The notes: a model not told the origin generated them from the sequence alone. A stretch of 64,000 nt of DNA from Candidatus Dormiibacterota bacterium (GCA_963850385.1 CAWKKS010000002.1:124578-188577); one strand, 5' to 3'. Counted from the first letter of the stretch, positions 44,601-52,569 are shown. Numbers and translations are program-made.

Positions 44601-45296
44601 GTGAACAGCATCACGCCCTTGGTGGAGGAGGTCTCGGCCCGGGCCCGAGCCTCCGCCGTGTTCGTCAAGCCCCGCCTGCGTGGCGTGCTCCACGAGCTGG
44701 CCTTCCCGGTGTCGCTGCTGGGTGGGGCGTGGGCCATCCTTCACGCCCCGGCAGGAAGCGCCCGCACCTCGACCGCGGTGTACGCGGCGACGCTGAGCGG
44801 GTGTCTCGGGGTGAGCGCGCTCTACCACCGCGGTCACTGGTCGGCGCGCGCCAAGGCCTGGCTGCGGCGCGTGGACCACGCCACCATCTTCCTGCTGATC
44901 GCGGGCACGTTCACCCCCATCGCGGTCATCGCCCTGTCCGGCTGGCTCACCACGGCGACGCTGGCCGTGGTCTGGGGCGGTGCGCTGGTGGGGAGCCTGC
45001 TCAGCCTGGCGTGGACCAACGCACCGGTGGCCGTCGAGGTCGGGCCGTACCTGGCTGTGGGCGGCTTCGGGGTGGTGCTCCTGCCCCGGCTGCTGACCAA
45101 CCTCGGCGTCGGGGGGGTCGCGCTACTCGCGCTCGGCGGCGCGGCCTACGTGGCCGGCGCGATCATCTACGCGCTGCAGCGCCCCAACCCGTGGCCGCGA
45201 ACCTTCGGGTTCCACGAGATCTTCCACACGCTGGTGGTCGCGGCCGCGCTCCTCCAATGGATCGCGATCACGCGGTGGGTGTTGCCCGCCGCCTGA
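44601..45296 (+). CDS. Hemolysin III / PAQR family membrane protein
   Basis: KPRLRGVLH, SALYH, RRVDHATIFLLIAGTFTP, GFHEIFH. Confidence 0.92.
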   Translation: MNSITPLVEEVSARARASAVFVKPRLRGVLHELAFPVSLLGGAWAILHAPAGSARTSTAVYAATLSGCLGVSALYHRGHWSARAKAWLRRVDHATIFLLIAGTFTPIAVIALSGWLTTATLAVVWGGALVGSLLSLAWTNAPVAVEVGPYLAVGGFGVVLLPRLLTNLGVGGVALLALGGAAYVAGAIIYALQRPNPWPRTFGFHEIFHTLVVAAALLQWIAITRWVLPAA

Positions 45297-46061
45297 GCGT
45301 GCCGCTCGCTCGGCGGGTGCGGCCACCGCGGGCTGACAACGCGAGCACCAGAACACCGTCCGCGACGGTGCGCCCAGCGCGACGGCGCTGACCGTCGTGC
45401 CACAGGAGACGCAGGGAAGGCCGGCGCGGCCATGAACCATCCGCGCTGAGCGGAAGCTGTCGGCGACGGCGGCGCGCTTCATCAGGTCGCGCGCGCGTCT
45501 GTACAACCCGGCGATGACCTCGTCATCGAGCGCGGCCGGGCTGGTGAACGGGTTGACCCGCTCGTACCAGAGCGCGTCGCAGCGGAAGATGTTGCCGATG
45601 CCCGCGCAGACGGACTGGTCGAGGAGCACCTCGGCGATGGTCGCCCGGCTGGATGCGTGAGCACGCCGTTGCACATCGGCGACGTCCCACCAGGGGGCGA
45701 GGATGTCCGGGCCGAGACCGCCACCGGCCGCGCGCGAGCTCACCAGTTCGCAGACCGGCGCCGCGAACAGCACCGCGCGGACATCGCCGAACCCGAGGAC
45801 AGCCGTGGTGAGATGCGCAGCTCGCCGAGCGCGCTGCGTGGTCGTGTACACGTGCCACGCGCCGGTCATGCGCATGTGCGAGTGCAGCGCGATCCCGCCG
45901 TTGAAGTGCATGTAGAGGTGCTTACCCACCGGCTCAACGCGCAGCAAGGTGCGGCCGACCAGCCGCTGCAGGGCGTCGGGACGCGCGGAGGAGACGGTCC
46001 GCCCGCCTACCCGCCGCTGCAGCTCGGTGGCGGCACGCCAGATCGTGTCACCCTCGGGCAT
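45123..46061 (-). CDS. nei: Fpg/Nei family DNA glycosylase (endonuclease VIII-like)
   Basis: N-terminal PEGD, GKHL, HMRMTG, H2TH LLDQ..AGIGNIF, C4 finger CVSC..WCSRCQ. Confidence 0.92.
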   Translation of the reverse strand: MPEGDTIWRAATELQRRVGGRTVSSARPDALQRLVGRTLLRVEPVGKHLYMHFNGGIALHSHMRMTGAWHVYTTTQRARRAAHLTTAVLGFGDVRAVLFAAPVCELVSSRAAGGGLGPDILAPWWDVADVQRRAHASSRATIAEVLLDQSVCAGIGNIFRCDALWYERVNPFTSPAALDDEVIAGLYRRARDLMKRAAVADSFRSARMVHGRAGLPCVSCGTTVSAVALGAPSRTVFWCSRCQPAVAAPAERAARSGGGQHPPRDRDPLEERGRDHQRVEDLVEPEGSRPRVGALQRVDDRAGHVGRAAERE

Positions 46062-51595: not shown

Positions 51596-51597
51596 CC

Positions 51598-52569
51598 ATG
51601 GGGCAGCGATACGAGAGTGGTGAGAAGTTCCTCCGTGTCATCCAGCTCTTCCAGCGTCTGTCGGACACGCAGGCCGGCTTGACCACCCGCCAGCTCGCCG
51701 AGCAGCTCGAGGTGACCACCCGCACTGTCCAGCGCTACATCAGCACCCTGCGCGACAGCGCGGGCATCGACATCGAGGAGGTCGACGGCCGCTTCCGCGT
51801 CGGTTCTCGAAGTCGCCTTCCCGCGATGCAGCTCGACCACTACCAGGCCACGGAGCTGCTGCTGGCGGTCCGCGCCATGCAGCAGATGCGCTCGGAGCAG
51901 GAGCCGGCGCTGGTGGGGGCGCTCGCCCAGCTGGCGCGAGCGCTCAGCGTTCCCGTGGTGACGCGCTACCTGCAGGGGCTGATCGCCGCGTCGGAGAGGC
52001 GCCCCGCCACCGGCGAGCGCCACGCGGTGGAGCGCGTCATCGTCGACGCTTTTGTACGGCGCCTGCGCACCGAGGTCACCTACCGCGACGCCGAGGGTCG
52101 CGAGACGCGCCGAGTGCTCAGCCCCTACTTCCTCGAGCCGCGAGCCGAGAGCCGCACGCTGTACATCTTCGCCCACGACGACCTCTCCGGCGAGGTTCGC
52201 CCGTTCCGCATCGACCGGGTGCGCTCCGCGCGGCTCTTGAAGGAGTCGTTCACCGTGCCGGAGAGCTTCGACATCGACGCGGTGGTGAGCGGCTCGTGGG
52301 GAATCTGGCAGGCGCCCGGCCAGGATGACGTGGTGCTGCGCTTCGACAGCGCCATCGCCGAGCGGGCCCGCGAGGCCCTCTGGCACAGGGGCGCGGAGAT
52401 CACCGAGAAGGATGGCGGCGACATCGAGGCGCGGTTGCGCGTCGCCAGCGAGAGGGAGATGCGCTCGTGGGTGCTCGGCTGGGGAGGGTCGGTCGAGGTG
52501 GTCGCCCCGCCGTCACTGCGCGAGCACGTCGCGGCGTCACTACGCCAGGGTGCGCAGCGCTACAGCTGA
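51598..52569 (+). CDS. wHTH-WYL-WCX transcriptional regulator (YafY/DriD-like)
   Basis: LAEQLEVTTRTVQRYI HTH; YRD..RVLSPY..FRIDRV WYL domain; WVLGWG..VEVVAP WCX domain. Confidence 0.93.
   Translation: MGQRYESGEKFLRVIQLFQRLSDTQAGLTTRQLAEQLEVTTRTVQRYISTLRDSAGIDIEEVDGRFRVGSRSRLPAMQLDHYQATELLLAVRAMQQMRSEQEPALVGALAQLARALSVPVVTRYLQGLIAASERRPATGERHAVERVIVDAFVRRLRTEVTYRDAEGRETRRVLSPYFLEPRAESRTLYIFAHDDLSGEVRPFRIDRVRSARLLKESFTVPESFDIDAVVSGSWGIWQAPGQDDVVLRFDSAIAERAREALWHRGAEITEKDGGDIEARLRVASEREMRSWVLGWGGSVEVVAPPSLREHVAASLRQGAQRYS

Follow-up and report, generated by a model that had tools for sequence, protein, structure and literature searches.

A WYL-type regulator, a conserved palindromic promoter box and a predicted LexA-independent DNA-damage regulon in a Dormibacteria genome

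Does a WYL-domain regulator encoded beside the DNA-repair genes lhr and nei control them, and does it do so independently of LexA? We examined this question in a 64,000-nucleotide (nt) stretch of a Candidatus Dormiibacterota genome (GCA_963850385.1, CAWKKS010000002.1:124578-188577), the whole of which is called the window below. A sequence-only reading of the window had proposed a local LexA-independent damage module, in which the product of a single WYL gene activates a divergent microprotein-lhr-nei unit, the co-transcribed DUF1345 membrane protein having no known role in such a system. Our analysis suggests that the WYL protein is probably an activator of a LexA-independent damage regulon, itself activated by single-stranded DNA (ssDNA). 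Its presumed signature in the genome is a palindromic box that marks four promoters, one of them between the divergent units.

The regulator and its candidate operator

The elements on which the question turns are the following (window positions).

51598-52569, plus strand: WYL gene, 323 amino acids (aa), winged helix-turn-helix (wHTH)-WYL-WCX; Pfam HTH_11, WYL and WCX
50825-50852, read directly: 28-bp perfect palindrome GGCCGGCGACAG-GCTG-CTGTCGCCGGCC, the candidate WYL operator, with core CGACAG-N4-CTGTCG
50814-50819, minus strand: -10 hexamer CAGGCT (NANNNT), 8 nt after TGTCGCCG and 6 nt before the ATG
50598-50807, minus strand: leaderless microprotein gene, 69 aa from its ATG

The WYL protein carries HTH_11 at residues 13-65, WYL at 146-212 and WCX at 244-317, and its homologs bear the names Candidatus Dormibacteraeota or Dormibacter; the organism is thus not an actinobacterium. 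A six-frame search of the genome gave a single match each for WYL and WCX, and this gene holds both. No pafBC is therefore encoded elsewhere in the assembly (2.49 Mb, 3 contigs), and the 51598-52569 gene is the sole candidate for a WYL-type damage regulator. No Pup_ligase match was found in the genome (assembly 85.6% complete); LexA is encoded.

Full-length alignment of the WYL protein to DriD of Caulobacter crescentus covered DriD residues 8-320, with a single-sequence E-value of 1.3e-15. In a profile search against the PDB, DriD matched best (1.7e-21), followed by PafC (3.8e-12) and PafB (5.5e-6), and fused PafBC was also a weaker match than DriD; this ranking against PafB, PafC, DriD and BrxR is by profile E-value. 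No BrxR or CapW chain appeared at E <= 0.01 in the same search.

The residues expected to read the operator were conserved. In DriD, Arg37 and Arg41 contact box guanines; DriD sites follow the consensus ATACGAC(X)7GTCGTAT, and the one that was crystallised reads ATACGACAGTTACTGTCGTAT (PMC10853764). R42 and R46 of the WYL protein align to these arginines and were invariant in 14 orthologs of 59-100% identity. Contacts of DriD to ssDNA include Y192, R204, W206, R207, R178 and Y240 (PMC9186387). Aligned to them, in that order, are Y189, R201, F203, R204, R172 and W237, which were invariant among the orthologs, F203 nearly so.

The palindrome lies in the 560 bp between lhr and the DUF1345-like gene, a region of 76% G+C that also contains the -10 hexamer and the microprotein open reading frame (ORF). 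Aligned upstream regions of this ORF in relatives read GCGACA(G/C)RCTGNTGTCGCC, 8 nt, NANNNT, 6-7 nt and ATG. The hexamer itself varied (GATCAT, TATCTT and CATGCT among relatives) at constant spacing, and the same held at the recA, recJ and second small-ORF sites described below. The conserved module is GCGACAG-N4-CTGTCGC, 8 nt, an NANNNT -10, 6-7 nt and the start codon of a leaderless ORF of 63-83 aa that ends in QLxLPL, and the palindrome was kept in at least 17 related loci. At the microprotein promoter, where the -10 hexamer lies 6 nt before the ATG and thus indicates a leaderless transcript, the proximal half-site falls at about -28 to -24 and the operator spans about -40 to -21. There is no -35 element (the hexamer 17 nt upstream of the -10 is AGGCTG) and no extended -10; promoters of this kind should be weak without help. 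No sigma-70 consensus promoter or terminator was found in 50200-51700. An 85-aa version of the small ORF with a GTG start was rejected, since its 16 extra codons are the palindrome and an ATG stands at leaderless distance in all relatives. The palindrome is also unlikely to be a terminator hairpin of an upstream gene: a U tract is missing, and unrelated promoters keep the half-site sequence and not just its pairing.

To score boxes, a 20-mer matrix was built from near-clade sites (at least 76% WYL identity), and the deeper clade with 49-65% WYL identity was left out of it. Scanning the 2.49-Mb genome gave four sites at or above 23.8 bits, the next best reaching 16.8. These sites, at C2:175407, C1:1228924, C2:496455 and C2:531596, lie before the microprotein in the window (30.5 bits), recA, recJ and a second leaderless small ORF, respectively; the recA-upstream site shares the identical 16-mer CGACAGGCTGCTGTCG with the window site. 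Of 19 distinct sites, 18 had TGTCGNNN followed by NANNNT at a distance of exactly 8 nt, against a background of 3.9% per orientation. A genome scan for leaderless promoters with a half-site only, in the style of PafBC, returned just the two known small ORFs and spurious frames.

The box follows the WYL ortholog and not LexA. Of 45 species-representative loci, 38 had a box of at least 17.5 bits no more than 2.5 kb from the WYL gene; among the 31 with enough flanking sequence, the deeper clade included, the count was 29. In that clade it lay either about 550 bp upstream of the WYL gene and divergent from it, or straight after the WYL stop codon. The pattern GCGACASNNNNNTGTCGC occurred 189 times in 41 family genomes, compared with 25 occurrences of the reversed control. 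Genomes with a WYL ortholog held a mean of 6.3 occurrences and those without it 1.4 (Mann-Whitney p = 1.7e-5, a co-occurrence statistic not corrected for phylogeny). LexA was still encoded in 13 of the 14 genomes that lack the ortholog. Distant WYL paralogs of other Chloroflexota (28-34% identity) had no shared neighbours and no box.

The predicted regulon, the microprotein and the LexA circuit

These observations suggest a mechanism in which the WYL gene product, a homodimer-type ssDNA sensor resembling DriD, would use CGACAG-N4-CTGTCG as its operator. Its promoter-proximal half-site would sit around -26, exactly 8 nt upstream of NANNNT, at promoters that lack a -35 and give mostly leaderless transcripts. 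When DNA is damaged, the regulator, with ssDNA bound, would bring RNA polymerase to the box promoters, which here would be those of the 69-aa microprotein, recA, recJ and the second small ORF. The microprotein, with a clamp-binding hexapeptide of Hda type, would be the conserved target adjoining the regulator. The lhr-nei genes behind it would be induced by read-through in addition to a basal -10 of lhr itself. LexA would govern a separate SOS regulon through a Cheo-type box, with recA carrying both signals, as in mycobacteria. In this scheme the genes, the box with its geometry and distribution, the residue conservation and the distinct LexA box are computational results, from which we infer binding, activation, ssDNA sensing, co-transcription of lhr-nei and clamp binding.

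Boxes in front of recA, recJ and the second small ORF turn the proposed local module into a genome-wide regulon. Within the same genus, a box was found upstream of recJ in three further genomes, upstream of recA in two, and upstream of both small ORFs. In other genera it preceded cinA-recA, a UvrD-like helicase gene (five genomes), recJ and two uncharacterised families. The box was rejected as a family-wide recA signal, since it stands at recA or cinA-recA in this genus and one other only.

Several further gene families stand behind boxes. The second small ORF (C2:531596-531613 in this genome; loci L136, L128, L122 and L112) was found behind a box in five genomes in all; its members are leaderless, 61-96 aa long, share the motif (V/L)IDAxxRFxRxNPEL...DELLxDA(V/I) and have no meaningful Pfam match. 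In several genera (L154, L186, L088 and L103), boxes stand before the gene for a protein of about 103-131 aa that contains WQFAKTMPQWPHEYTVREW; its L103 member has no Pfam family. A family of about 290 aa (QFxLHxG...GEVxSRQW...LGFTGGGPE(R/K)NF) is box-driven in L188, L190, L194 and L043. In one family member (G146; loci L145, L146 and L148), boxes with correct -10 spacing precede mobile-element genes encoding an ArdC N-terminal domain, an Xis-like HTH and an integrase-like ORF. This mobile element may use the host WYL signal as a DNA-damage sensor, as prophages use LexA.

The microprotein has an N-terminal block (IDRPxPGHYxGRL), a Pro/Arg-rich linker and a C-terminal QLALPL. Matches to its ORF were obtained by tblastn in most near-clade loci, and at 25 loci a box is followed by a leaderless ORF (63-107 aa) that has Q[LM]x[LF]x[LIF] close to its C-terminus. 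An alignment of 24 sequences showed M1, one Tyr in the N-terminal helix, and the Q and P of QLxLP to be invariant; the hexapeptide was QLSLPL, QLPLPL or QLRLPL in relatives, with both leucines in at least 90% of the 24. Among the codons of the N-terminal block, 11 of 12 third positions were variable, compared with 4 of 12 first and 3 of 12 second positions; for the hexapeptide codons the counts were 6/6 third, 4/6 first and 0/6 second. This third-position bias points to selection at the protein level. Searched with a profile, 1.84 billion protein cluster representatives yielded only 50 members, nearly all of 63-89 aa and of the same layout, and Pfam, NCBIfam and PADLOC gave no match to the microprotein.

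QLSLPL is the clamp-binding hexapeptide of E. coli Hda, and the consensus is QL[SP]LPL (PMC3836487). We infer from this likeness that the microprotein may bind the beta clamp through its C-terminal hexapeptide. If so, it could be a replication brake, or an adaptor that brings Lhr, or in the deeper clade a RecB-like nuclease-SF1 helicase, to stalled forks. The checkpoint logic would then be unlike that of the division inhibitors SulA, DidA and AciT, and an unannotated microprotein family with a clamp motif, as the core output of the system, offers a new hypothesis linking a damage signal to the replisome.

The LexA circuit is separate. The absence of an SOS box at the locus, which the sequence-only reading had noted, was confirmed: no Cheo-type G[AT]AC-N4-GT[TA]C occurs within C2:169700-177150, the genome coordinates of the region of the finding. 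Elsewhere in the genome such boxes precede several genes, among them lexA, recA and an imuA-like gene. At lexA the SOS box is GAACATCCGTTT, which covers the -35 of the promoter; no palindrome is present there. At recA, GTACATCTGTTC lies downstream of the box promoter, and this site was kept upstream of recA in genomes with or without the WYL ortholog. With both a box and a LexA-type site, recA would be under dual control, as has been described for mycobacterial recA (PMC8223512).

The SOS-box sites lie at C1:1213100 (lexA), C1:1228858 (recA), C2:228887 and C1:834264. They read GAAC/GTAC-N4-GTTC, are often flanked as agcGAAC...GTTCg, and mark the separate LexA regulon. A similar SOS box (GAACGGATGTAC) stands about 260 nt upstream of a UvrD-like helicase gene, of a family that carries the WYL box in other genera.

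Gene order and competing explanations

The remaining features of the locus are these.

45123-46061, minus strand: nei, Fpg/Nei-family glycosylase with Fapy_DNA_glyco, H2TH and zinc-finger domains; its true start is MPEGD at 46061
46048-50409, minus strand: lhr (large helicase-related, 1453 aa), with DEAD, Helicase_C, WH_Lhr, DEAD_assoc and WH2-4_Lhr (Pfam and NCBIfam)
50410-50597, minus strand: spacer of 188 nt from the microprotein stop to the lhr start
50918 or 50966 to 51595, plus strand: DUF1345-like membrane protein gene (Pfam score 23.5 bits, under the 31.8 cut-off)
52625-53071, plus strand: msrB (SelR / TIGR00357)

By coordinates and domain matches, nei, lhr, the small ORF, the DUF1345 gene, the wHTH-WYL-WCX gene and msrB are all where the sequence-only reading had placed them. 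The nei and lhr genes overlap by 14 nt at the lhr stop, and exactly 2 nt separate the DUF1345-like gene from the WYL gene. A mechanically called lhr ORF of 1684 aa, reaching 51102, was rejected; its extension is not Lhr and is an artefact of 72-76% G+C. At its other end, the nei ORF extends about 50 aa beyond the zinc finger and overlaps the convergent hlyIII (44601-45296, plus strand) by 174 nt (45123-45296); in a same-genus genome this tail matched as a separate tblastn segment. The start of the DUF1345-like gene is probably GTG at 50918, 7 nt (GCCCGCG) after a TAAGGT -10 at 50905-50910, so that the operon of the regulator, too, seems to be leaderless. TAAGGT is found about 66 nt downstream of the centre of the palindrome, and WYL autoregulation is possible.

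Synteny was compared by tblastn with the window proteins across 20 WYL-homolog loci of the phylum, three metagenome contigs and the 45 species-representative loci. In the near clade the order was HlyIII, nei where present, and lhr on the minus strand, then a variable DinB_2/YceI/MarR segment, then the DUF1345-like gene, WYL, an M20 peptidase gene where present, and msrB. Here lhr lay 0.35-3 kb from the WYL operon and was directly divergent from it in few loci only (L066, L068 and L072). In a same-genus genome (L034/L095), DinB_2 lies between lhr and DUF1345; tblastn found no DinB_2 remnant at that place in the window. Only five loci, the window, L095, L100, L074 and L058, had nei after lhr. 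In the deeper clade a GNAT gene preceded WYL and lhr was not within 10 kb, L056 excepted; lhr lay within 3 kb of WYL in the near clade and L056 only. The DUF1345-like gene was confined to the near clade, was not found in L072, and was substituted by GNAT in the deeper clade. The deepest conserved neighbour of WYL was msrB, which all near-clade loci have downstream of WYL and 9 deeper-clade loci have immediately behind it. Across the whole ortholog clade (window 52569-53071 and L075-L098) msrB was seen to follow WYL, with a gap of 24 nt in L081 and an overlap of the genes in L077. This order suggests that GNAT or DUF1345, WYL and msrB form an operon and that the regulator may be linked to oxidative damage.

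Conserved WYL-DUF1345-lhr-nei synteny, which the sequence-only reading had set as a check on its proposal, thus did not extend beyond the genus-level cluster. The WYL-lhr-nei linkage is lineage-specific and DUF1345 is not a conserved partner. Control of the divergent unit by the single WYL gene, independently of LexA, is very probable, given the palindrome with its promoter geometry between the units, the DriD-like half-sites, the retained residues and the box near WYL at most loci. Synteny reasoning from a WYL gene beside lhr-nei therefore led to a conclusion of the right kind by way of a reason that was wrong in part; what is conserved is the operator.

Some observations weigh against a DriD-like, ssDNA-activated regulator of this regulon. 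At 85.6% completeness, the assembly may lack a second WYL gene. Two ssDNA contacts of DriD, Tyr168 and Arg176, have no identical aligned residue in the WYL protein: Y168 stands opposite D164, with a Tyr two residues earlier, and R176 opposite a gap, in a part where the pairwise alignment is uncertain. The half-sites are separated by N8 rather than the N7 of DriD, and the centre is GC-rich where that of DriD is AT-rich. Confinement of the recA box to this genus and one other implies that regulon membership is fluid. To these are added the operator position and the points concerning lhr, each taken up below with the explanation that it favours.

The strongest competing explanation overlaps the activator reading and disputes its last step only. 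It holds that WYL controls the microprotein, recA and recJ, and that lhr-nei is an independent constitutive operon brought next to the regulator as a by-product of DinB_2/YceI/MarR loss. We regard this as a realistic though somewhat doubtful account. The relatives do have DinB_2, YceI and MarR between lhr and WYL, lhr has no upstream box in many of them, and in several the microprotein gene converges on DinB_2 and has no lhr behind it; the distance of lhr from WYL in the deeper clade points the same way. Six genomes, that of the window among them, keep a GATCAT 6-7 nt ahead of the lhr start (7 nt in the window), which suggests a basal leaderless promoter of lhr. In addition, the 188-nt window spacer is about 120 nt longer than those of relatives and holds a 12-13-bp GC hairpin (CCGCGGGGGAGGGCGA...TCGCCTCTCCCGCGG) that could terminate part of the transcripts. 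Against independence, the microprotein gene and lhr share a strand in five relatives (L066, L068, L069, L072 and L101), with about 30-70 nt between the stop of the one and the start of the other. The window spacer contains no consensus terminator, and its RNA folding was no better than that of shuffled sequences (z = -0.87). In the deeper clade the microprotein likewise precedes a large gene, for a RecB-like nuclease fused to an SF1 helicase (about 1050 aa), and in L098 microprotein and nuclease-helicase are fused in one frame. Furthermore, lhr is PafBC-dependent in M. tuberculosis (PMC8682763). The short spacers, the lack of a terminator, the nuclease-helicase parallel and the M. tuberculosis lhr make read-through plausible, and we lean towards induction of lhr-nei from the box promoter in this lineage only, not as a conserved feature. 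What does not hold of the proposed control of lhr-nei is its directness: the conserved direct target is the microprotein, and lhr has its own conserved -10 and is joined to the box ORF in some genomes only.

The WYL protein could instead be a repressor of CapW/BrxR type that occupies the same palindrome and leaves it on binding ssDNA, so that the same regulon is derepressed. The palindrome position, about -40 to -21, is typical of a repressor and here counts against activation. WYL repressors that sense ssDNA are known (PMC11662680), and PADLOC matched the WYL protein to generic CRISPR-associated WYL models only. We nevertheless consider a repressor unlikely. The promoters, with neither -35 nor extended -10, are expected to be weak unaided, and the strict 8-nt spacing, needless for a repressor, fits promoters dependent on PafBC or DriD. 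The profile search pointed to DriD and PafBC and gave no BrxR or CapW, and no defence genes lie near the WYL gene, whose neighbours are repair and housekeeping genes. The preference for an activator is thus drawn from the anatomy of the promoters and from likeness to known families.

Very unlikely, in our assessment, is that the palindrome serves a different protein (for example a ClgR-like one, a divergent LexA or a neighbouring MarR), with WYL a mere neighbour: a MarR gene does lie between box and WYL in many near-clade loci and the RecA-NDp motif of mycobacteria was at one time put forward as a ClgR site (PMC5656591), but the box persists in the window and the deeper clade, where there is no MarR, stays with WYL through rearrangements (divergent upstream or straight after the stop), and has half-sites equal to those of DriD with the residues that read them invariant. 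LexA was rejected as the binder, having a distinct conserved box of its own and occurring in genomes without the palindrome.

Comparison with known systems

To our knowledge, SOS-independent damage responses driven by WYL proteins have been worked out in three lineages only: mycobacteria, Caulobacter and Acinetobacter. The ssDNA-activated regulator proposed here would add a testable wiring diagram (regulator, operator, promoter rule and regulon) in a fourth, an uncultured and deeply branching soil lineage.

DriD (PDB 8TP8 and 9PFQ) has the same wHTH-WYL-WCX order as the WYL protein, the same arginines, CGACAG/CTGTCG half-sites and the core ssDNA contacts. Its regulon likewise contains recA and recJ and has a small protein, DidA, as its prime target, and LexA coexists with it. 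The host lineage here is Chloroflexota/Dormibacteria, unlike the Caulobacter host of DriD, and the promoters differ. DriD boxes stand at a fixed distance from the -10 and are associated with poor -35 elements (PMC13004042). They end at -36, whereas the box described here overlaps the -35 region and lies about 13 nt closer to the -10. DidA is a membrane-bound division inhibitor; the microprotein is predicted to be soluble, is Pro/Arg-rich and ends in a clamp hexapeptide, and most transcripts here are leaderless.

The mycobacterial RecA-NDp consensus is tTGTCRgtg-8nt-TannnT (PMC5656591), and PafBC acts at a -26 motif by sigma adaptation (PMC11804915). The same TGTCG core occurs at about -26 in the present promoters, with the same 8-nt spacer to a TAnnnT-type -10 and no -35. 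Dual control of recA with a LexA box, lhr in the regulon and the ssDNA signal are also alike, all three being predicted here. PafBC, however, is a heterodimer or a fusion of about 650 aa, compared with a single 323-aa gene product here. It is encoded with pafA in the Pup-proteasome locus; here no pafA or Pup was found (in the 85.6% complete assembly), and the neighbours are DUF1345 and msrB. The PafBC motif is non-palindromic, whereas the box is a full palindrome; the PafC-sigma4 contact can therefore not be copied as such. The regulon here is small, with four promoters.

DdaA-AciT of Acinetobacter and SiwR of M. smegmatis are also single-gene WYL activators of homodimer type; they respond to genotoxic stress, and their target promoters contain a palindrome. 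Among the targets of DdaA are recA and AciT, a small protein induced by damage. AciT is a membrane-anchored division inhibitor; Acinetobacter lacks LexA, unlike the genome studied here. The microprotein has no predicted membrane segments, and a mode of action like that of DidA or AciT is thus unlikely for it. The operon under SiwR control is a divergent neighbour, and the target family of SiwR, DinB_2, sits between lhr and WYL in many relatives of the window, although no box was found before the DinB_2 genes of these relatives.

Among clamp-binding proteins, SocB is a Caulobacter toxin that binds the clamp and blocks replication. The microprotein has no sequence relationship to Hda/HdaA or SocB, and its family shares with Hda the QL[SP]LPL-type hexapeptide. 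In the microprotein this hexapeptide lies at the C-terminal end of a small protein without an AAA+ or other domain.

A protein and half-sites resembling those of DriD, combined with a box at -26, indicate that a DriD-type protein and operator are paired with a PafBC-type box position. The combination of a homodimer-type protein with -35-less geometry bears on how the two activation mechanisms are related. Our tentative proposal is that the microproteins form a new damage-induced, leaderless, clamp-docking family that is the conserved first target of the regulator. If this is true, the TGTCG half-site and the -26 geometry common to both systems would also place the origin of PafBC-type promoter use before the Actinobacteria, with a homodimer on a palindrome as its starting point.

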